The position numbers were made by a program, and so were the translations under genes. Below the pieces are notes generated by a model. It did no database searches and was not told the origin of the DNA. It was given only the letters and a program-made list of their open reading frames with translations. A DNA stretch of 26,759 bases, from positions 1 to 26,759 of IMG/VR virus record IMGVR_UViG_2531839665_000020. One strand, 5' to 3'. Shown here piece by piece: positions 2,397 to 15,112 of this stretch (its first letter is position 1; every line of letters starts with the position of its first letter). Source of the stretch: a virus. Its lineage: Duplodnaviria; Heunggongvirae; Uroviricota; Caudoviricetes.

Positions 2397-2747
2397 TTAC
2401 AACATTGTCAGGGCGTTAAGGCGGGATGTTTTTGGCTGACGCCAGTCCAGCTTATCGAGGAGCATTGCCAGTTGCGAGCGGGTAATGGATACCTTACCGT
2501 CACGCACCGCAGGCCAGATAAACTGGCCTTCCTCCAGGCGTTTGGTGAACAGGCACAGACCATCAGCATCAGCCCAAAGAATTTTAACGGTGTCCCCCCG
2601 TCGGCCACGGAAGATAAACAGGTGACCGGAGAAGGGATTATCATTCAGCACATGTTGTACCTGTTCTCCCAGTCCGTTGAAGGATTTACACATATCGGTA
2701 ACGCCGGCAACGAGCCAGATACGGGTACCTGATGGGAGTGAAATCAT
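2397..2747 (-). CDS. IS66-family orfB (TnpB), second copy
   Basis: 116 aa, MISLPSGTRIWLVAGVTDMCKSFNGL..., clearly paralogous to the 378..725 product but diverged. Confidence 0.85.
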   Translation of the reverse strand: MISLPSGTRIWLVAGVTDMCKSFNGLGEQVQHVLNDNPFSGHLFIFRGRRGDTVKILWADADGLCLFTKRLEEGQFIWPAVRDGKVSITRSQLAMLLDKLDWRQPKTSRLNALTML

Positions 2748-3169
2748 CTTCCCCTCCCGCTCAGTTCGCGGATTAACATCGTGAGCAGCTCTGGCGATGG
2801 ATTTTCCAGCGTCATGTTACCGTGACGGAATTCCACCTTGCAGGAACTGGCACTGACTCTGGTCTGAGTGGAAGTGGATAAAGACGGCGCAATGGCCGCC
2901 ACAGGTTCTTTCTGCTCATCCGGCGTTATTTCTACAGGTAATAATTCAACGCCAGTGTCAGAAGAGGTTGTTACCGGAAGACGCCGCGAAACATGCCCTT
3001 CGTTCTGCCAGAGCCTGAGCCATTTGAAAATAACATTATCATTGACGCCATTTTCTCGTGCAATCTGTGTAACACAAGCTCCAGGTTGTGATGCCAGTTC
3101 AACCATACGAAGTTTGAATTCATTCGAATACTTTTTACGAGGTTCTTTTCGCCAGTCCTGTAATTCCAT
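2744..3169 (-). CDS. IS66-family orfA, second copy
   Basis: 141 aa with the same HTH-like motif (EFKLRMVELASQPGACVTQIARENGVNDNVIFKWLRLW); ATGA-type overlap with downstream orfB. Confidence 0.8.
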   Translation of the reverse strand: MELQDWRKEPRKKYSNEFKLRMVELASQPGACVTQIARENGVNDNVIFKWLRLWQNEGHVSRRLPVTTSSDTGVELLPVEITPDEQKEPVAAIAPSLSTSTQTRVSASSCKVEFRHGNMTLENPSPELLTMLIRELSGRGR

Positions 3170-3296: not shown

Positions 3297-3431
3297 TTAC
3301 GATTCTTTAGGCAGATAATAATTTTGATCAGCCCATTCAACTGCCGTCATTGGTACAACCCTGACCAGAGGCTGCAGCGCAACCGAAACGGCAGCCATCA
3401 TATTATTCAGTTGTTGCTCTGATATATTCAT
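3297..3431 (-). pseudogene. Terminase large subunit (gpA-like), N-terminal ~44 codons only, truncated by IS66 insertion
   Basis: Translation MNISEQQLNN...PMTAVEWADQNYYLPKES matches the lambda gpA N-terminus pattern (MNIS...TAVEWADANYYLPKES); the reading frame runs into the IS66 terminus at 3300 and stops at 3297; start overlaps the 3' end of the Nu1-like gene. Confidence 0.7.
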
Positions 3432-3912
3432 CGAGTAAATCCGGTAATTTATCCCCTGCCCGCGCACACTGATTTGCCCCCTTAGCAATAAGGGTTTTCA
3501 GATGGTCAAGATGGCGCGGTGTTAAATCAGGAAACTGTCGCTGCATGGATAAAGGGATGGAATCAAGCGTACTGGATAACGCCATTGCCAGCTTACTGAG
3601 GGCAAAAATACAGAACCCGGTGTCAATAAGTTTTCCTTTTGACACCTCATTTTTTAACTGCTGTGTAACAGCCTGTTCTGCTGTCAGTTCCCATCTGGCA
3701 ATAAGCAATTTCTCCTCATAGTCGTCTTCGCTATCGCCATCAGGCACATCGTTTTTACTTCTCCTCAGATACGATATGTAAAAATCGCGCCAGGCATCCA
3801 GATCCAGTTGCCCTCGCTTATTCGATATCGGGGCACCCGGCAATTTCTGCAATCTGCGAAGCTGGCGATCGGTCAGACTTAAATGCCTGGCAACTTCAGT
3901 CTGCGTAGCCAC
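3403..3912 (-). CDS. Terminase small subunit, Nu1-like
   Basis: 169 aa; C-terminal region (TGFCIFALSKLAMALSSTLDSIPLSMQRQFPDLTPRHLDHLK...LLDEYI) resembles Nu1/NohA; GTG start preceded by GAGGTGAGGA; cos site immediately upstream. Confidence 0.8.
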   Translation of the reverse strand: MATQTEVARHLSLTDRQLRRLQKLPGAPISNKRGQLDLDAWRDFYISYLRRSKNDVPDGDSEDDYEEKLLIARWELTAEQAVTQQLKNEVSKGKLIDTGFCIFALSKLAMALSSTLDSIPLSMQRQFPDLTPRHLDHLKTLIAKGANQCARAGDKLPDLLDEYIRATTE

Positions 3913-4613: not shown

Positions 4614-4928
4614 TTAGCATTTTTTTGACCGCGCGTTTCCGGACGTATTCTGTTCTCCTGTCCCTTTATATCGTCGGAATACCCGCCGCTCTTCAAATCC
4701 CATTCCCAACTCAGAATGTAGTCTGTTGACCGCTTGTTTTATTTCGGTCAGGTTCACCGGTGAAACCGGAGTCCGGCGCGCCTTACGCAAACACTCTGCT
4801 CGTTTCTGTGCCGCCACTTTTCTTTTCTGGTCATCACTTAGCTGTACCATCACTTTTGCCCATCGTTCAGCTGCTCTCCGGTACAGTCCTTTTTTCTCCA
4901 GACATTCTGCCACGTGATCATGTAGCAT
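4614..4928 (-). CDS. PerC-family transcriptional regulator (Pch-like)
   Basis: 104 aa; motif LEKKGLYRRAAERWAKVM matches the PerC/Pch signature; ATG preceded by GGAGG; long A-tract-rich region upstream. Confidence 0.7.
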   Translation of the reverse strand: MLHDHVAECLEKKGLYRRAAERWAKVMVQLSDDQKRKVAAQKRAECLRKARRTPVSPVNLTEIKQAVNRLHSELGMGFEERRVFRRYKGTGEQNTSGNARSKKC

Positions 4929-5100
4929 AAGTGACCTCCGATTATCTACAGACTGCCATCCTGAATTTACCTTCCCTTAATGAAATAACAATAAAAAACA
5001 AACCACGCAAAAACAATAAAATAACACACAAAAAAAACTAAATAATAAACAAAAATAATCACCTTATTTTATTATTTTTTGAGGGGGCAATTACTGAACA
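4929..5100 (-). promoter_or_regulatory. AT-rich, A-tract-rich upstream region of the PerC-like gene (probable promoter / curved DNA)
   Basis: Dense A-tracts (e.g. 4980-5090) directly upstream of the gene; compositionally unlike flanking DNA. Confidence 0.4.
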
Positions 5101-5393
5101 AAAAACGCTGACTATATACTCAAAACCAAACAACTATTCTGCCAATCAGGTATCATGGCAACACACGGAATTACCGTGTTTTTGCCTTCTCTGCCCATAC
5201 AATACGGGCATATACTTCATACTCTATTGTAATATTTCTATCCATGCGCCCCACTCCATTTACCTGTAAATAATATTCAAAATATTTATCACAGAAATCG
5301 TTTTTGTCCATGAACTGAGCACACTATAAAGTCCGGAACTGACTCTTTGTTAAATTACCTTAACGTTACCAGTAACACCTTCATAACAAAACA

Positions 5394-5861
5394 TCACGGT
5401 ATACACTGGGTACGGATATATTCCTGTGCTCCTTCCAGTTGCTTCTGCATTGCCATCAGCCGTTCTCTGAGGATGAAATAATCCCGTTCAGCGGCTTCTG
5501 CCAGTCGGGGACCGGTTGCATTATCCACGCCGGAGGTGATGGGGGCTTTACGCAAGGAGCCTGGACAGTTGGCGTTGATGCGCAGGCGCTTACGACCAGC
5601 GGCAACATCAGCACGCAGAGTTTCATTTTCAGCTCTCGCATCGGCTAATTCCCTCGAGTATCTGGCATCAAGTGCAGCGACATCACGCTGGCGTACCTGC
5701 ATATCAGTAATTGTCACGTTCGCCAGCTTCAGCTCACTGGCTTTTTTATCGCGTTGCGCTTTGTAGGTAATGGCGTTATCGCGGTAATGATTCAGCCCCA
5801 GACTAAGCACACCACAGGCTACCAGCAGGACAATAATCACCACACACAGAACACGGTTCAT
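5394..5861 (-). CDS. Rz: Spanin inner-membrane subunit Rz
   Basis: 155 aa; N-terminal TM segment followed by [25 protein letters not shown]...[10 protein letters not shown], a close match to lambdoid Rz. Confidence 0.9.
5456..5641 (-). CDS. Rz1: Spanin outer-membrane lipoprotein Rz1 (embedded in Rz, +1 frame)
   Basis: 61-aa ORF nested in Rz; lipoprotein signal (LPLVVSAC) then Pro-rich stretch ([16 protein letters not shown]) typical of Rz1; exact start (M1 vs M6) uncertain. Confidence 0.75.
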
Positions 5862-6012
5862 ATCCCCCTCACCCCACCAGCCATGACAAAGTTAAGACGC
5901 GCCAGGCAGTGGAAAAGCAAATAGCAACCAGCATTAGTGAAAATGAAATGCCGACGATTACACAGAGGATCTTCGCCAGCGTTATGAGCTTGTCTGACAT
6001 GCTTAATCCTCT

Positions 6013-6195
6013 TCACGATTTCAACGCAATGACCAGTTTTGCCAGCCCATACAGCATCGGAGACACAGCAATACCGACCGCCACCCACTTAATAGCAAAA
6101 GCCAGCGCTCTGCTGACGTCATCAGTTACAGGCGCTTTCAGTTCAAGGCCGTTTTTCATAGTCAATCTCAACAGAATTCGTTTATACTTTCCCAT
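6013..6195 (-). CDS. Small membrane protein (60 aa), unassigned, between R and Rz
   Basis: ATG at 6195 preceded by GGGAGAA; Lys-rich N-terminus and one C-terminal hydrophobic helix (IKWVAVGIAVSPMLYGLAKLVIAL); the longer ORF-track version (6013..6273) would read through the terminator hairpin, so the internal start is preferred. Confidence 0.4.
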   Translation of the reverse strand: MGKYKRILLRLTMKNGLELKAPVTDDVSRALAFAIKWVAVGIAVSPMLYGLAKLVIALKS

Positions 6196-6227
6196 GTTCT
6201 CCCTTGCCTTACTCAAGGTCAGAAACA

Positions 6228-6267
6228 CAAAACCCCGTTTGCGGCCAACAAACGGGGTTTTACTTTT
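6228..6267. terminator. Bidirectional rho-independent terminator
   Basis: Perfect 9-bp stem CCCCGTTTG / CAAACGGGG (6233-6241, 6249-6257) with 7-nt loop, A-run upstream and T-run downstream, so U-tract on either strand. Confidence 0.6.
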
Positions 6268-6350
6268 ATTCACTTAGTTTTTGCCAGTTCGCAGGATTTC
6301 GTGTTATCCGCCCGCGTTGGCCAACGTCATTTTTCAGCAAAATATTCTGC

Positions 6351-6884
6351 TTATCTGTCAATTCCCCAGCACGCCAGTGCACTTTCCTGGTCTCGCCGGG
6401 ATACCTGACCGTAGCAATTATTTGAGCGGATACGGCAGTCTCTGCCACCGTCCTTAATCCACCAGCGAATCGCTTCGCAGGCACCTTTTCGATCACCTGC
6501 ATTAATCCGTCTGTAAAACGTAGACGGGAAACACTTACCGGGGCCAATGTTATAAGGACAAAATGACGCGATACCCGCCTTCTGGGGTTCGGTCAGCGGT
6601 ACTTTAATATTGCGCTCCACCCACTCCAGCGCCTTATCACGTTCAATGGCGTTAACCTGGTCGCACTTTTCCTTCGATAACTTCATACCCGGGACGACAG
6701 GCTTACCATCCACTCGGGTGGCACCGCGGCAGATGGTCCAGATCCCCGCACCATCACGGTATGCCGTGGTGTGGTTACCTTCTTTTTCGTCAAGAAACTG
6801 GTCGAGGATTTCAGGCGCAGACGTCCCTGCACCAATCAGCGCCAGAACGGCAGCCGACAGGCCGTATCTGATTTTTGCGTTCAT
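6351..6884 (-). CDS. R: Endolysin R, SAR-type lysozyme (T4-lysozyme-like fold)
   Basis: 177 aa; N-terminal signal-anchor-release-like segment (YGLSAAVLALIGAGTSAP) and catalytic E/D/T region (EGNHTTAYRDGAGIWTI) as in phage 21 R. Confidence 0.9.
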   Translation of the reverse strand: MNAKIRYGLSAAVLALIGAGTSAPEILDQFLDEKEGNHTTAYRDGAGIWTICRGATRVDGKPVVPGMKLSKEKCDQVNAIERDKALEWVERNIKVPLTEPQKAGIASFCPYNIGPGKCFPSTFYRRINAGDRKGACEAIRWWIKDGGRDCRIRSNNCYGQVSRRDQESALACWGIDR

Positions 6885-7009
6885 GGATATTTATCAGGAT
6901 TTATCGGTTCCGGACCCCTGGATATGTTAAGTCTTCAGCCCGCCGGTGGTGGGCACTGGCGTAAACCCAACAATGTGAGATGGCTGCCTCGCAAAGATAA
7001 TGAACAGAT

Positions 7010-7273
7010 ATGAATGAAGAAAATACAGCGCTTTTTGACAGAATTTTCACTCTTGAGTTACAGGTCGGTTTTCTTCTCCCAAAGATAATCAAAGCCATGG
7101 ATGCACTTGGTAAGAATAACGCTGTGTCAGATTACCTGATCGCCGAAATGGAACATCTCATTAAAGAAATACCAAAGACCGATGCTCGTGATGATAAAAG
7201 ATTCCTCAGGGCTGCTGAAAATGCTCTTTCAACAGTGAAGCGCAGTTCAGGCGCGCAGCTAATTCAAGAATAG
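7010..7273 (+). CDS. Hypothetical protein (87 aa), convergent with the 7206..7736 gene
   Basis: AT-rich ORF with protein-like helical composition; weak SD; 3' end overlaps the opposite-strand gene by 68 bp. Confidence 0.45.
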   Translation: MNEENTALFDRIFTLELQVGFLLPKIIKAMDALGKNNAVSDYLIAEMEHLIKEIPKTDARDDKRFLRAAENALSTVKRSSGAQLIQE

Positions 7274-7736
7274 TTTCTTTCATTTCATCTGCTGCAAGCA
7301 CCTCATTTTTTGTTGGGGTGCTTTTTTTCAATTCAGTAACACAGCACTCCAGTTTTTCAATACGTGATTCAACATCATCTTTTTCTGACCGCAGTGTTGA
7401 CGGCGGCATCTTCAGAGAACAAGTAATTCTTCCCGGTAGCTTTCCTTTGTAGGTTATCAACACATCCTGCGCCTCTAAAATTACGGGGCGATTTTCCGGC
7501 AACGGACCATCCCCTTCACATAACCCGGCAGCAACATCCATGAAAAACTGCTTCGCCTGCTTTTTCGCCTCAGCTTCGTAAAACTCCAGCGTGGCACCTT
7601 CAGTACGGTCAAGACTAATCGCCACATCTGGCAACAACAGTGACGGATACCCACCAATTTCCAGTGCCACAGTAACAGTAATCTTATCCGGGTAATTATT
7701 TATCCCTTTAACAACCAGTTCGTATTTTTTCTTCAT
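7206..7736 (-). CDS. Hypothetical protein (176 aa) inserted between holin and endolysin
   Basis: ATG 5 bp downstream of the holin stop with GGAGAG SD (translationally coupled to S); lower-GC codon usage than flanking lysis genes; no domain recognised. Confidence 0.65.
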   Translation of the reverse strand: MKKKYELVVKGINNYPDKITVTVALEIGGYPSLLLPDVAISLDRTEGATLEFYEAEAKKQAKQFFMDVAAGLCEGDGPLPENRPVILEAQDVLITYKGKLPGRITCSLKMPPSTLRSEKDDVESRIEKLECCVTELKKSTPTKNEVLAADEMKETILELAARLNCASLLKEHFQQP

Positions 7737-7740
7737 CGCT

Positions 7741-7956
7741 TTACTCTCCCCGCGCCGCCTTACGACGGTCCTCTCTGATTTTGAAATACAGGTTAGTCAG
7801 ATATGTCAGCAGCCCAAACAGCAGACTCCCCAGCACGCCTATTGCCGCCCACTGAGACGGAGAGACTTTGTCCAGCAGCTGCAGGAACCAGTAGCCCGTT
7901 CCCACCGCTGACGTGGTGTATGACACACCTGTTGTGATTTTTTCCATCTGGTACAT
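7741..7956 (-). CDS. S: Class II holin / pinholin S (phage 21 S-like) with dual-start motif
   Basis: 71 aa [71 protein letters not shown], very close to S21; Met1/Met4 dual start. Confidence 0.9.
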
Positions 7957-8031
7957 ACCCCGTCTCTCGCAATCCGGAAGCTCACAACAACAGGAGGGGC
8001 ATCAGCTCACACCGACAGCCCCTGCGCATGG

Positions 8032-8301
8032 TTACATCATCATTTCGCCGTCAGGCTGAGGCTCACTGCTACCGTCAGGCTGAGACACGACGCCATCTGA
8101 AACAGCACTGTCACCCGCGCCGTCTTCAGGCTCAGGAGCAGCCGGTCCCCCCAGCAGCTCATCCAGAATGGCATCCACTTCAGCATCAAGACGCGCCTCA
8201 AGATTCTGGCGGAGTTGCTGTTTCAGTGCGCTTCTGACTTCTTCAGAGCGCAGGACGTCCTTCACTGCTTCAGCAGTGACCAGAGATTTTATTTCTGACA
8301 T
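8032..8301 (-). CDS. Acidic hypothetical protein (89 aa)
   Basis: Internal ATG at 8301 chosen because the longer ORF (to 8457) overlaps the upstream 60-aa gene; product MSEIKSLVTAEAVKD... with Asp/Glu/Pro-rich tail. Confidence 0.55.
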   Translation of the reverse strand: MSEIKSLVTAEAVKDVLRSEEVRSALKQQLRQNLEARLDAEVDAILDELLGGPAAPEPEDGAGDSAVSDGVVSQPDGSSEPQPDGEMMM

Positions 8302-8338
8302 GGGATTTTCTCGTTGAAAGGTGTTGTTAAGAAAGTTG

Positions 8339-8521
8339 CTACGAAATGAGAGGCTCTTCGGGTTTTGTTCCGGCTGACTGGCTGGCGCTGATTTTTTCCG
8401 CCGCCGCGGCATCAATCTTTTTGCGTATATAGTTCCGGATAACCTTATACCCGCCACTTACCAGATATAACGTGCACACCACCGTGCAGAAATACAATAA
8501 AATAAGCTGTACAAATCTCAT
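8339..8521 (-). CDS. Small membrane protein (60 aa)
   Basis: ATG preceded by GGGAGGG; single TM helix (LILLYFCTVVCTLYLVSGGY) followed by a basic tail. Confidence 0.5.
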   Translation of the reverse strand: MRFVQLILLYFCTVVCTLYLVSGGYKVIRNYIRKKIDAAAAEKISASQSAGTKPEEPLIS

Positions 8522-8668
8522 TATCCCTCCCGGTTATTGATATGGTGTTGACATCGTTAATACCTGTTGGTTAAAAAAGTGTCCTGCATGTTTTGCTTTG
8601 GATATAACGACATTTGCCGCCGGTTCTGGCTCCTTGTTTTCCCTGCCCCGGCGGCCTTTTTTTCCTGC

Positions 8669-10606
8669 TTACGGGTTATTCACTTCCACTGTTATACTTT
8701 CAATCAGCACCGGATATGTCGCACCGCTAGTGATATCGGTCACGCGCAATTTGTCTGCCGTAAACGTGCCGACCGGTGACTGTGACAGCATGAACGGCGT
8801 CCCGTCCTTACCATCAATGACCGGCGTCACCTCAATACTGTTGTTACCGGCAAAACGGAAGCCCAGCGTATGCCATTCGTTATCAAATGCGCCGAATGAC
8901 CCCAGCTTCGTGTTCTGACCAGCATTTCCCTTGTGGTACATCACATTAAGGTCTGTGGCATCGCTCTGTACGTAAAACGACGCCAGCAGGTTATGAGCGG
9001 CATTACCTTCCAGTGTGACGCCCTGAGGCAGTGAAGAAACCGGCCAGTACAGCGCCAGTGCGTACTGATTAGCTGTCAGTGTGCCATCAACTTTAAAACG
9101 ACAACTGATAAGCCCGCCCTTCTCCAGCAGGTCTGCGCCATTACCGGCATCATGCTGCATAAACCACGAGGAACTTCCTGTCTGTTTGGTCCACCTCAGC
9201 GCCTTACCTCCTGCAGCACCTGCATCATCAACTACCAATGCACGCCCTCCTTCAGCTCCCCATCCCTGCGGATTCAGTAAACCACCTGACTCTGTTGCAC
9301 GGTAATAAAGCAGCGTTGTCACTGATTTCCCGTCCGTTGACGGTGTTGATGGTGTGTCCGGTGACGGCTTCTCATCCGGCGGCATCACAACCTGTTCCCC
9401 ACCCACCAGTTCAGCCGTCCGTCCTGCATGGAGAAGAATCGCTGAGGCAAGACGGTCAGAAATAATCCCCCTGCGTGCCCATGAGCTGAAATGGCTCGCA
9501 CGGTCTGCTGACGTCCAGTTTGCCGACGTCCGGGAGGCCGCACCGTAATATCCTGATGCCGGAATATCCGGGTCTTCTTCCGGTTTGTTCGTCGGGACAT
9601 TTGCTCCGTTCTCATCGGTCATGAACGGCACAAAGTGAATATTCTTTTCCGTTTTGTTTTTGTAACTGCCGTACACCGTCTGGTAAGTGGATTCGCTCTT
9701 CTGCTTCCAGAAATAAGTTGTGTCTCCACATATCCAGGGAACACCGTCAGCAGAACCACCAGCGCACTGTCCCACCATATCTGCAAGGTCCGTACGATAT
9801 TGTTCCACTACTTCTGTAAAACGGGCTGTGTGATTTGCTGGCGTTCCGTCAAAGTCAAATTCCCCCTGCATCCACACCACGGCAAGCAGCACATTTTTCG
9901 GGTTCTTTGCCAGCGCGGCTTTTGTACGACCGATGAGATCCTTATACAGCGGCCTGCCCACACCCCAGCGGGTAGAACTCTCTGAGGCACCGGTCACGTC
10001 ACTGTATGTTCCATCTGCCCCGGTGGTGAAAGCTGAACCACCACGGCAGCACGGAACCAGAAGAATACCCGCATTCGCCGGTATAAACGGCAGCAGCTTT
10101 TTGGCAATATGCAGCCCCTGCCCCACGGTTCCGTACTGACCTTTCGACAGGTCAGCTTTCGGATGGTTAAGACGGCTCATGTCCTGTACATCATGCAGAC
10201 AGTGGTCTGCCGGAATAATGTCGTTATATTTACAGGGAGCGCCATCCGGCGTCACTGTGCTGCGACGAGCCAGTTGCTTTATACGCGGGTCAGGACGGTC
10301 ATATGTCTGCGGCAGAGGAAGCCCCTCACCGTAAGCCATGCCGTTCGACTGCCCGGCCAGTGGAATAACGTAGTAATAATCTGGCTCCGTGGTGACCACT
10401 CCCGGATAGCCACCATCCCCCGTGCCGGGCACAACCACTGGCGTGGTCACATCCCCCTCCGCGGCAATCGCCTGCATCAGGGTATAAGGGGTTATGGCCA
10501 CCGGACTACCAAACGGCTGCCAGCCCTCTTTCAGTTTGTGTGTCAGCTTTTCCGCAAGATCTGACGGCGACGCCGCCCTGACAACATCATAATGTTTAAT
10601 CGACAT
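8669..10606 (-). CDS. nanS-p: Prophage sialate O-acetylesterase NanS-p type (DUF1737 N-terminus + SGNH esterase + C-terminal lectin-like domain)
   Basis: 645 aa; GQSN esterase motif (VIPLAGQSNGMAYGEG); length and architecture match the NanS-p proteins found downstream of stx in EHEC prophages; ATG preceded by GGGAG. Confidence 0.9.
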   Translation of the reverse strand: MSIKHYDVVRAASPSDLAEKLTHKLKEGWQPFGSPVAITPYTLMQAIAAEGDVTTPVVVPGTGDGGYPGVVTTEPDYYYVIPLAGQSNGMAYGEGLPLPQTYDRPDPRIKQLARRSTVTPDGAPCKYNDIIPADHCLHDVQDMSRLNHPKADLSKGQYGTVGQGLHIAKKLLPFIPANAGILLVPCCRGGSAFTTGADGTYSDVTGASESSTRWGVGRPLYKDLIGRTKAALAKNPKNVLLAVVWMQGEFDFDGTPANHTARFTEVVEQYRTDLADMVGQCAGGSADGVPWICGDTTYFWKQKSESTYQTVYGSYKNKTEKNIHFVPFMTDENGANVPTNKPEEDPDIPASGYYGAASRTSANWTSADRASHFSSWARRGIISDRLASAILLHAGRTAELVGGEQVVMPPDEKPSPDTPSTPSTDGKSVTTLLYYRATESGGLLNPQGWGAEGGRALVVDDAGAAGGKALRWTKQTGSSSWFMQHDAGNGADLLEKGGLISCRFKVDGTLTANQYALALYWPVSSLPQGVTLEGNAAHNLLASFYVQSDATDLNVMYHKGNAGQNTKLGSFGAFDNEWHTLGFRFAGNNSIEVTPVIDGKDGTPFMLSQSPVGTFTADKLRVTDITSGATYPVLIESITVEVNNP

Positions 10607-10949
10607 CGAATTTCTCCCGTGTACAGGAACAGAGTTAAAAAGCCGGAACCGGAATCAAATCACAGGATGACCATCTGCCAGTGGCTGGTCGTAAAAAAAA
10701 GGCCGCGCCATGCGCAGCCGGAAATAAAGGGATAACGATGATAGTTTGAGAAAAACAGAAATAACACTTTTGTGGCAAAGCATGGTGCCGGGTGCCTCCC
10801 GGTGAATTCAGTACCAGCACCTGAATCCGCGATTATCCCATATACCTAGTTGCTGATTGCCCCTCCGCACAGGGGGATTCACCATGCAGTAGTATTTTTA
10901 ATAAACAGTAAACAAAAAAATCAAGCATTATGCAGGCTGTTTCTTTTTA

Positions 10950-11683: not shown

Positions 11684-12505
11684 CTATCTGGTCACCTTTT
11701 TCAGTTGTTGTTCTGCCCATGCTTCTTCAATATCAAACTGCACCACCAGCGTATCGTAAAAACGTTTAACTGTTTTTTTCCATGTATCAAGAGATATGGC
11801 ATCGGTTACATTACATATGGCATTAAATGCCTCCGTTGAAGGTAATCTTTCATAGCCACGACCACCACAACGCTGGCAGTCTCTGATAACAGGCATACCA
11901 CGTTTTACCGACTCTTCACGATGAATGGCAACACCGCGCCCACGACAATCTTTACAGGCGGTGGAAACCTCCCCCTTCCCTCCACACTCCGGACAGGCAA
12001 CTTTTACCACCTCCCTGACTTTTTTCCATTCCTCCCAGTAAGACGGATACACGCCTTTTGTGCACTTTGCCCACACTGGCGGCTTACCATCCGGATACTG
12101 GATCTTGTTTGTAAAAACCTCGCTTTCAATAAATTTTTTTCCGTGACAACAGGGGCACTGTTTTTTGCTCGCCGCGCTACGGGCATAATCTTCAAACGCA
12201 TACGAAGCCATAATACGCATCACTGCCGGTTTTATTTCTGCCGGGAGTTTTCTTAACGCCGCCACGCGATCACACCGACTGAGTGCATATTCTGTCAGCA
12301 ATTCTGTTGCCCGCTCTCTGTCATTCATACTAATGCCCATTTTCCCAAGGAACGCAGAAAACCCCATCTCAGCCCAATTCTGTGTCATGCCCTGCGCGGC
12401 CATCACATCAGTGATACTCAGCGTATCTTTCGACGTTGAGGCCGATGCATCAGTCAGGCCGGGGGATTTTGGGGAGTAGTATTTCGGTAAATCTTCCAGT
12501 TTCAT
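11684..12505 (-). CDS. Q: Late antiterminator Q (phage 82/21-type, zinc-binding)
   Basis: 273 aa with four CxxC motifs (CPCCHGKK, CPECGGKG, CKDCRGRG, CQRCGGRG) and overall similarity to 82-type Q; ATGA overlap with rusA stop. Confidence 0.85.
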   Translation of the reverse strand: MKLEDLPKYYSPKSPGLTDASASTSKDTLSITDVMAAQGMTQNWAEMGFSAFLGKMGISMNDRERATELLTEYALSRCDRVAALRKLPAEIKPAVMRIMASYAFEDYARSAASKKQCPCCHGKKFIESEVFTNKIQYPDGKPPVWAKCTKGVYPSYWEEWKKVREVVKVACPECGGKGEVSTACKDCRGRGVAIHREESVKRGMPVIRDCQRCGGRGYERLPSTEAFNAICNVTDAISLDTWKKTVKRFYDTLVVQFDIEEAWAEQQLKKVTR

Positions 12506-14765: not shown

Positions 14766-14921
14766 TTACTCCTCAGGTTCGTAAGCTGTGAAGACAGCGA
14801 CCTCCGTCTGGCCGGTTCGGATTCGTACCTCGCAGAGGTCTTTCCTCGTTACCAGTGCCGTCACTATGACGGTTAAACAGATGACGATCAGGGCGATTAA
14901 CATCGCCTTTTGCTGCTTCAT
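14766..14921 (-). CDS. hok: Hok/Gef-family type I toxin (51 aa)
   Basis: MKQQKAMLIALIVICLTVIVTALVTRKDLCEVRIRTGQTEVAVFTAYEPEE matches the Hok family; ATG preceded by AAGGAGAAG; an in-frame upstream ATG at 14978 gives a 70-codon mok-like extension. Confidence 0.85.
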   Translation of the reverse strand: MKQQKAMLIALIVICLTVIVTALVTRKDLCEVRIRTGQTEVAVFTAYEPEE

Positions 14922-14924
14922 AGC

Positions 14925-15010
14925 CTGCTTCTCCTTGACCTTTCGGTCCGTAAGAGGCAATCTATATGTGACGAGCATATAGGGGCCTCACTTCGATTTA
15001 TAGTCGGGTG
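14925..15010 (+). ncRNA. Predicted Sok-like antisense RNA region (approximate)
   Basis: Placed by analogy with plasmid R1 hok/sok: leader elements GCTTGAGGCTATCTGCCTC and GATTGCCTCTTACGG resemble the R1 hok leader as I recall it; exact RNA ends not determinable by eye. Confidence 0.3.
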
Positions 15011-15112
15011 GGGCTTTTATCTATCTGCCGTTGGTGTTCATGCCCGAGGCAGATAGCCTCAAGCACCCGCAGCAATTCTACTTAACTCTGCCGTTACAGC
15101 AAGCCGTTTTCG

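Follow-up and report, generated by a model that had tools for sequence, protein, structure and literature searches.

A two-way terminator hairpin, its leader and a small membrane-protein gene as a likely portable unit between the R and Rz lysis genes of a defective Escherichia coli prophage

The interval between the endolysin gene R and the spanin gene Rz, exactly positions 5862-6350, was analysed in IMG/VR record IMGVR_UViG_2531839665_000020 (positions 1 to 26,759, the whole stretch of 26,759 nucleotides (nt) being called here the window), which is a defective lambdoid prophage of Escherichia coli with its lysis genes on the minus strand (the lysis strand). We found in this interval a bidirectional terminator hairpin that is conserved with compensatory changes, a short leader, an open reading frame (ORF) of 60 amino acids (aa) named ORF-A, and a second one of 43 aa, ORF-B, directly before Rz. 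Our comparisons show that the hairpin goes with ORF-A and not with R, the conserved unit being the two-way terminator, the short leader and the small ORF. The reading towards which we lean, with modest confidence, is that the slot holds a terminator-leader-ORF-A cassette, bypassed by Q and gated by an antisense RNA, together with an Rz-coupled ORF-B, both ORFs encoding membrane peptides that possibly adjust lysis. Two elements are likely to be new: a portable unit of terminator and small ORF with a predicted antisense RNA, and a conserved, Rz-coupled 43-aa ORF in Shiga toxin (Stx) phages.

The terminator hairpin and ORF-A in a mosaic slot

The hairpin proved to be stronger than in the preliminary description, which had given it a 9-bp stem with U-tracts on both strands at 6228-6267. 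The perfect stem is 13 base pairs (bp) long (6229-6261) and consists of the 9-bp core CCCCGTTTG/CAAACGGGG extended by four A-T pairs, with 6 G-C pairs. The T tracts 3' of the stem read TTTTACTTTTATTC on the plus strand and TTTTGTGTTTCTG on the minus strand, the tails lying at 6262-6271 and 6217-6228, respectively, and the U-rich tract directly 3' of the stem is UUUUGUGUUUCU on the lysis strand and UUUUACUUUUAU on the plus strand. RNA folding gave -21.6 kcal/mol for the lysis-strand hairpin (z -3.4, 0 of 200 shuffles being as stable) and -18.7 kcal/mol for the plus-strand one (z -3.8, 2 of 200 shuffles). Nine terminator-like sites were present in 4800-8600, where 3.6 +/- 1.7 are expected, and this one has the longest stem. 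In the alignment of 17 distinct alleles, 97.7% of the 220 stem cells are paired, and two stem pairs carry compensatory changes, both sides being altered in Salmonella alleles, with a covariation score matched by 0 of 500 shuffles. The hairpin is more than chance and has been conserved in evolution with compensatory changes. It presents the features of an intrinsic terminator, namely a G+C-rich stem-loop, a 3' U tract and a stem maintained across alleles, and the 5' A tract and 3' T tract were kept in all the lineages examined. At one stem position the commonest state in the 17 alleles is U.G, which pairs only in the lysis-strand RNA.

The small ORF downstream, described before as a 60-aa frame with a good Shine-Dalgarno sequence and one C-terminal transmembrane helix, was recovered with these properties at 6013-6195. 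Its Shine-Dalgarno, the GGGAG core of AAGGGAGAAC, occupies 6203-6199 and is separated from the ATG by 3 nt, and the best 19-residue hydropathy window (1.90) covers residues 38-56. The AlphaFold2 model shows a short basic helix (residues 3-14) and a long one (25-59) with a mean pLDDT (predicted local distance difference test) of 75, and we propose that ORF-A is an inner-membrane protein held by its C-terminal helix. The stem arms of the small stem-loop in the leader are invariant, the loop varying among alleles, and the fold of 6196-6262 on the minus strand reaches -28.7 kcal/mol (z -4.4) with the Shine-Dalgarno partly paired with the U tail of the terminator. Met13 (ATG 6159-6157) is invariant across the family, members with unrelated N-termini included, and 6 nt upstream of it stands GAGG, or GAGA in the window; it is also the first residue of many database entries (48 aa). 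Met1 and Met13 may form a dual-start pair like those of holins.

ORF-A is clearly a real gene under purifying selection. The ratio of non-synonymous to synonymous differences per site (pN/pS) in diverged alleles compared with the window is 0.06-0.20, R itself giving 0.10-0.18, and the most diverged pair differs by 12 synonymous and 2 non-synonymous changes. Homologues, down to about 54-60% identity, are confined to Escherichia and Salmonella prophages and share the nearly invariant core AFAIKWVAVGIAVSPxLYGLAKLIIALKS; an exhaustive profile search of 1.84 billion representatives returned only 22 proteins at E <= 0.001. Relatives have charged or bulky C-terminal residues (..IRWW) and occur as tandem copies in some phages (L096, L106; L numbers denote the loci compared). 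No match to ORF-A was found in Pfam, NCBIfam or PADLOC.

Comparison with related lysis cassettes, which the preliminary description had recommended, defined the limits of the cargo. In H-19B and ST865 the similarity to the window extends from R past the hairpin as far as 6197 and starts anew at 5867, so that the swapped block is exactly ORF-A plus ORF-B, and other small membrane ORFs stand in their place. In 933W, BP-4795 and P13771, homology extends from R only as far as 6257-6265, on the hairpin's 5' edge, and is found again from 6000, where ORF-B starts: in these 933W-type phages, ant (189 aa) behind an unrelated hairpin replaces the hairpin and ORF-A, and ORF-B stays beside Rz. This ant-type hairpin (GGCACC-GTAAT-GGTGCC followed by TTTGTCATTT) has a T tract that is good only in the sense direction. 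E2348/69 and phiSTEC1589 hold permuted pieces, ORF-B and then the C-terminal part of ORF-A. The 3' flank of R upstream of the hairpin is common to 218 phage records. Because of these homology breakpoints the small ORFs can be regarded as exchangeable cargo, and the R-Rz junction as a mosaic slot. The earlier suggestion that a small membrane protein has been inserted is therefore right as far as exchange is concerned, but the hairpin is better counted with ORF-A, and a second ORF, tied to Rz, is also present. Likewise, the statement that R and Rz are usually adjacent applies to K-12 Qin, in which the two genes overlap with nothing between, but not to the P21/Stx-type cassette family, where separation is common.

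E. coli 2014C-3011 carries the whole R-Rz interval with 100% identity, and O157:H7 strains carry it with 98.6%. Among 5,426 complete E. coli genomes, 990 contain at least 80% of its length and 1,822 contain some part, whereas among 50,697 phage records just 14 have ORF-A. The NCBI Prokaryotic Genome Annotation Pipeline (PGAP) labels both ORF-A and ORF-B 'hypothetical protein'.

Unrelated small membrane ORFs ending in ..(I/V)RWW were also seen in the R-Rz gaps of H-19B (L002), E2348/69 (L005), ST865 (L006) and L038, and in L105 and L106; examples are an H-19B ORF of about 45 aa starting FDFSKLIREIR, and MSAELIRAMAFAIRIVAIAVLVWAIRWW. Small ORFs of this type form tandem arrays in L096/L097 and L106.

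The hairpin can be assigned to ORF-A because it accompanies this gene to sites unrelated to R. In Salmonella, an identical 63-aa homologue stands directly before Rz behind three different holin-endolysin cassettes, with a PF00959 lysozyme (two sequence versions) or a GH19 endolysin, or behind ant, and in both the ant-carrying L090 and E. coli L031 a homologue of the hairpin follows ant, immediately before ORF-A. Phage phiSTEC1575-Stx2k (L009) has an M15 peptidase endolysin and a 57-aa family member preceded by AAAACCCCGG...CCGGGGTTTTT; no Rz was found in this locus. Remote members were seen beside tail-fibre genes (L094, L104), downstream of a capsid gene (L106) or on a short contig (L105), and each has, 30-60 nt upstream, a strong hairpin flanked by a 5' A tract and a 3' T tract. 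The terminators of L094, L105 and L106 are of unrelated sequence but keep this design. In L009, the gene that immediately follows the ORF-A-like one, at 2155-2337, is a 60-aa ORF with a lipobox (FLLVGC), which may be an unrecognised outer-membrane lipoprotein or spanin component.

A candidate antisense RNA over the ORF-A start

The only promoter-like site near ORF-A lies inside the gene on the opposite strand, over codons 3-13. A constitutive promoter in the first 12 codons of ORF-A would produce an RNA of about 75 nt that would stretch from about 6194-6197 to the hairpin, with its 3' end near 6265-6271, and would be a perfect complement of the start codon, the Shine-Dalgarno and the leader of ORF-A. 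The predicted molecule combines a 5' stem-loop with the terminator (-24.6 kcal/mol, z -3.95), a fold typical of small RNAs (sRNAs). This RNA would keep translation of ORF-A low for as long as it is more abundant than the late transcripts. Such an RNA would explain why the terminator works in two directions and why it travels with ORF-A.

Three observations strengthen the case for the promoter-like site, namely frozen synonymous sites, recurrence in four other lineages and the kept A tract. First, third-position differences between E. coli and Salmonella number 1/16 in codons 3-18 and 21/42 in codons 19-60 (Fisher p = 0.002), codons 3-18 forming a 48-nt island that is identical except for the window's own AGA/AGG difference; the promoter-like site falls within this frozen stretch. 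Second, L104 (TGGTCA-18-TATACT), L009 (TGGACA-18-TATACT, 10/12 matches), L092 (TAGTCA-18-TATACT) and L094 (TTGGCC-16-TATACT) have a promoter-like site in the corresponding position and orientation. It is the only promoter-like site in the 450 bp scanned in L104, L009 and L094, and one of two in L092, with 0.3-0.9 expected. A -35-like hexamer is preserved at a distance of 16-18 nt despite differences in the amino acids encoded over it (LTM, LSIM, EANM). Third, the 5' A tract, which only termination in the antisense direction needs, is kept in every lineage, including L094, L105 and L106 with their unrelated terminators.

Other observations weigh against an antisense RNA. The 9-of-12 promoter match taken alone is no better than chance, since 5 such sites were found in 3.8 kb where 5.0 are expected, and the 18-nt spacer is suboptimal. 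Loci L105 and L106, the most remote members, have no convincing antisense promoter. The lineages compared are homologous, and the K-Y-K/R..L-x-M motif, or a Met13 start with its GAGG, could alone fix the nucleotides. The hairpin is more stable on the lysis strand in 16 of 18 alleles, with G.U pairs where the antisense strand has a C.A mismatch, which points to the sense direction as the main one.

In a rival explanation, the hairpin is a plain terminator that closes the S-R unit or insulates the genes downstream, ORF-A and ORF-B are accessory lysis genes, no antisense RNA is made, and codons 3-18 are frozen by protein constraint, by the Met13 start or by mRNA folding near the start. The one-directional T tract of the unrelated hairpin that ant-type phages carry at the same place speaks for this explanation, as do the greater stability of the sense-strand hairpin in most alleles, the invariant Met13 with GAGG 6 nt upstream, the modest promoter match and an N-terminal motif that is conserved at the protein level even in remote members. 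A plain terminator of the R unit does not, however, account for a hairpin that accompanies ORF-A to places unrelated to R, for the A tract, or for a -35-like hexamer kept at its spacing over different amino acids. We judge this rival to be a serious but rather improbable alternative.

The antisense-gated cassette was also compared with published and annotated RNAs. In the R-Rz gaps of Sakai Sp6, Sp9 and Sp11, all of the ant type, there was no peak listed by Hfq-CRAC (crosslinking and analysis of cDNA) and no Hfq-bound EcOnc sRNA; the Sakai Sp4 region examined was without lysis genes. Rfam at gathering thresholds reported only sok, STnc100 and DicF, each in another part of the window. A permissive Rfam search of 5300-7400 gave sub-threshold matches centred on the hairpin, for example ohsC with 22.7 bits compared with a gathering threshold of 50, which were taken as chance. 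The hairpin was also considered as the terminator of the multicopy prophage sRNA HnrS (EcOnc10-12), and this identity was rejected, HnrS lying downstream of Rz in Sakai Sp9 in a region without similarity to the window (Table S2, PMC4104026).

Expected late expression, ORF-B and the possible role of the peptides

In lambdoid late operons, Q-modified polymerase passes terminators. A Q gene lies upstream of the lysis genes on the same strand of the window (11684-12505), and the promoter scan found no sigma-70-like promoter on the lysis strand between R and Rz; Rz and Rz1 are for these reasons expected to be transcribed by Q-modified, terminator-resistant polymerase. Since Q reads through terminators, the hairpin would not block spanin expression after induction and would stop unmodified polymerase only: the latter would halt at the hairpin, and the Q-modified enzyme coming from the late promoter would pass. 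The preliminary description had deduced that Rz/Rz1 transcription needs read-through or antitermination; antitermination is what the position of Q suggests, but nothing special is required, a terminator inside the cassette being, by analogy, ordinary lambdoid late-operon biology for which no special mechanism seems to be needed. The two alternatives of the preliminary description, antitermination and insertion, are compatible with each other, each being right in part. ORF-A, ORF-B, Rz and Rz1 would then be strictly late products of one transcript. In Stx phages, the late genes including the lysis genes are made from the late promoter by a Q-modified polymerase that ignores terminators (PMC7547250).

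ORF-B, absent from the preliminary description although it fills the remainder of the gap, has a hydropathy of 2.86 over residues 11-29. Downstream of the hairpin the genes form a tight string of ORF-A, ORF-B and Rz/Rz1, with 12 nt from the ORF-A stop to the ORF-B start, and the ORF-B stop (TGA, 5869-5871) falls within the Shine-Dalgarno of Rz, 7 nt ahead of the ATG of that gene. We assign ORF-B to the block next to Rz, where it abuts the ribosome site of this gene. All 43 codons of the frame are open in 276 phage records, most of them from Stx phages, and its length is fixed down to about 58% identity, all in E. coli, residues 1-25 being nearly invariant and the C-terminus variable. It is annotated as ORF50 of BP-4795, ORF53 of P13771, and ECs_5722 and ECs_5730 of Sakai, and is usually left unannotated, including in 933W. 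ORF-B had no match in Pfam, NCBIfam or PADLOC. Its constraint is weak, with a pN/pS of 0.2-1.15, which counts against the functional part we assign to it.

Several identities were tried and rejected for the two proteins. They are not related to each other (hhalign probability 3.7%). Neither matches a Pfam holin family, the holin of the cassette being the PF04971 gene at 7741-7956, and neither has a periplasmic domain or a lipobox as expected of spanins, Rz and Rz1 being present separately. Neither a profile search against PDB sequences nor Foldseek against viral models gave a meaningful match for ORF-A or ORF-B, and no paper mentioning either one was found by protein accession or by topic.

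Our best guess is that ORF-A and ORF-B would be membrane-active peptides adjusting the timing or the completeness of lysis by the pinholin and the SAR (signal-arrest-release) endolysin. As this type of lysis is triggered by depolarisation, membrane-active peptides could shift its timing. The late-only expression deduced above, the packing against Rz, the single helix, the charged or bulky C-termini and the tandem copies would all fit such peptides.

A different role would follow if ORF-A, ORF-B or both were classic morons, expressed from their own promoter in the lysogen for the benefit of host or prophage (for example superinfection exclusion) and not for lysis. Insertion between genes that are adjacent in other phages, the lower G+C content (0.474, compared with 0.537 for R and 0.528 for Rz) and the presence of family members at several late-region junctions typical of morons are in keeping with this. 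Yet no promoter-like site was seen on the lysis strand from the R stop to ORF-A, only 33 nt separate the hairpin from the start, the terminator is upstream of the gene with none after ORF-A or ORF-B, ORF-A, ORF-B and Rz lie close together with ribosome sites that overlap, and PADLOC gave no match; we regard the moron explanation as unlikely. Still less credible is that the ORFs are non-functional recombination debris, open by chance beside a junction-scar hairpin: although ORF-B reaches a pN/pS of 1.15 in some comparisons and is often unannotated, and fragments or permuted copies of ORF-A exist in E2348/69 and phiSTEC1589, the low pN/pS of ORF-A, the 12-to-2 excess of synonymous changes in its most diverged pair and its conservation from E. 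coli to Salmonella, together with an ORF-B of exactly 43 codons in all 276 records, in alleles down to about 58% identity and with residues 1-25 nearly invariant, oppose it.

More specifically, and only tentatively, ORF-A with its hairpin and internal antisense promoter might represent an unrecognised family resembling type I toxin-antitoxin (TA) systems, placed in Q-dependent late operons and acting as a timer or booster of depolarisation-triggered lysis, its toxin message arising solely from antiterminated late transcription and being translated under the control of the constitutive antisense RNA, with ORF-B as a second, Rz-coupled lysis peptide of 933W-type phages. Like the proteins of hok/sok, ldr/rdl and zorO/orzO, ORF-A has no more than 60 aa with one membrane helix and is located in a prophage, the charged or bulky C-termini and the tandem copies of its relatives are further points of likeness, and the predicted cis-antisense RNA with its own terminator covers the ORF-A ribosome site. 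Unlike these systems, ORF-A lacks its own promoter and apparently relies on Q-antiterminated late transcription, and searches of Pfam, NCBIfam, PADLOC and Rfam gave no homology to a known toxin family or antitoxin RNA. In Sakai prophage Sp5, the type I locus hokW-sokW is reported to aid phage release (PMC8621323) and offers a precedent for a small toxin with this effect.

The cassette is widespread, including in O157:H7, and ORF-B is found in 933W-type cassettes, where lysis timing sets the release of toxin and phage. If ORF-A is membrane-active and antisense-gated, a regulatory layer would be added to a textbook lysis system and a new type I-like family would be defined; if not, the oddity of a terminator within the cassette is still explained by Q antitermination and mosaic exchange.

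Gene order, comparable systems and minor features

The minus-strand order in the window is Q, STnc100-type sRNA, SASA/DUF6645 esterase, DUF826, holin, DUF1327/YdfR, R, Rz (Rz1), PerC-family and Nu1-type small terminase (Table 1). In a 100%-identical locus, R is named 'lysozyme' by PGAP.

Table 1. Positions of the elements of the R-Rz interval and of the neighbouring late genes in the window.
Feature	Position	Strand	Remarks
Bidirectional intrinsic-terminator hairpin	6229-6261	both	13-bp perfect stem, 7-nt loop, T tracts each side
ORF-A 5' leader, 33 nt	6196-6228	-	small stem-loop CCUUG-N7-CAAGG; between hairpin and start
ORF-A, 60 aa	6013-6195	-	phrog_1115, E 6.6e-42, function unknown; AlphaFold2 model
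ORF-B, 43 aa, one membrane helix	5869-6000	-	phrog_4906, E 7.3e-24, function unknown
Promoter-like site antisense to ORF-A codons 3-13	6159-6188	+	TAGTCA-18 nt-TATACT
Predicted cis-antisense RNA, about 75 nt	6194-6270	+	ends placed from promoter-like site and terminator
R 3' flank, about 89 nt, conserved, non-coding	6262-6350	-	common to all cassette types including ant-carrying Stx phages
R, phage-21-type lysozyme, hydrophobic N-terminus	6351-6884	-	Pfam PF00959 Phage_lysozyme, E 1.9e-25; upstream neighbour of the slot
Rz (i-spanin)	5394-5861	-	Pfam PF03245 Phage_lysis, E 2e-46; downstream neighbour of the slot
Rz1 (o-spanin), embedded in Rz	5456-5641	-	Pfam PF06085, E 4.1e-19
Q antiterminator gene	11684-12505	-	Pfam PF03589 Antiterm, E 4.7e-50; same late operon, upstream of lysis genes
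STnc100-type sRNA	10747-10913	-	Rfam gathering-level match, 102.2 bits; downstream of Q
SASA/DUF6645 esterase gene	8669-10606	-	
DUF826 gene		-	between esterase and holin genes
Phage-21-type holin gene	7741-7956	-	Pfam PF04971
DUF1327/YdfR gene, 176 aa	7206-7736	-	
Nu1-type small terminase gene	3403-3912	-	PerC-family gene between Rz and terminase gene

The cassettes of 933W, BP-4795, Sakai Sp6/Sp9/Sp11 and H-19B are the closest known counterparts: like the window they have phage-21-type S, R, Rz and Rz1 with cargo between R and Rz, a terminator-like hairpin after the same R 3' flank and, in 933W-like phages, an ORF-B homologue directly before Rz. They differ from the window in holding ant with the unrelated hairpin, or a different small ORF (H-19B), instead of the hairpin and ORF-A. 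Phage P22 makes a small antisense RNA, sar, from a promoter at the start of ant, and this RNA pairs with the ant ribosome-binding site. The layout predicted for ORF-A is alike, and in related phages the gene of the slot is ant; ORF-A, unlike ant, encodes a small membrane protein and not an antirepressor, and there is no sequence similarity.

As described by Juhala et al. 2000, cited in PMC4104026, lambdoid morons have their own promoter upstream and a terminator downstream. The cassette resembles them as extra DNA of lower G+C content between otherwise adjacent genes in a Q-dependent late region, and differs in having its terminator upstream and no visible sense-strand promoter. The prophage sRNAs of enterohaemorrhagic E. 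coli (HnrS/EcOnc10-12, AgvB, AsxR) are, like the predicted antisense RNA, short, terminator-ended, located in the late region and convergent with late genes. AgvB and AsxR are encoded immediately beyond the late promoter (PMC4104026). HnrS, which Sp9, Sp10 and Sp12 carry downstream of Rz, is absent from the window and does not correspond to the R-Rz hairpin. In Sp9, HnrS (EcOnc12; Sakai NC_002695.2 1779522-1779569, L099) is about 75 nt downstream of Rz and convergent with the lysis genes; the corresponding stretch of the window, 5171-5393, is unrelated to it and contains a 46-aa ORF (5171-5311, minus strand; PGAP hypothetical), with a plus-strand terminator-like site at 5163-5179.

A plus-strand ORF of 122 aa (5909-6277) was rejected as a gene: its frame crosses the hairpin, and it belongs to no family of Pfam, NCBIfam or PADLOC. 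Within the R 3' flank (6262-6350), Salmonella L092 has a promoter-like TTGTCA-16-GAAAAT, and this conserved minus-strand segment may represent either an element of the 3' untranslated region or a short RNA that stops at the hairpin. Between R and the DUF1327/YdfR gene, a plus-strand ORF of 87 aa (7010-7273; phrog_18136, unknown function) is followed by a terminator-like hairpin (7296-7323, plus strand) and looks like a convergent moron inserted into the lysis cassette; the 176-aa DUF1327 ORF overlaps its 3' end, and YdfR of a related strain is a truncated pseudogene according to PGAP. The window also contains gathering-level Rfam matches to the sok antitoxin RNA (14919-15068, minus strand, 103.9 bits) and to DicF (22012-22063, plus strand, 77 bits). 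Directly beyond the small terminase gene, an IS3-type (insertion sequence) helix-turn-helix ORF (2744-3169) and an IS66-family transposase (775-2313) were observed, and the structural and packaging region appears truncated.

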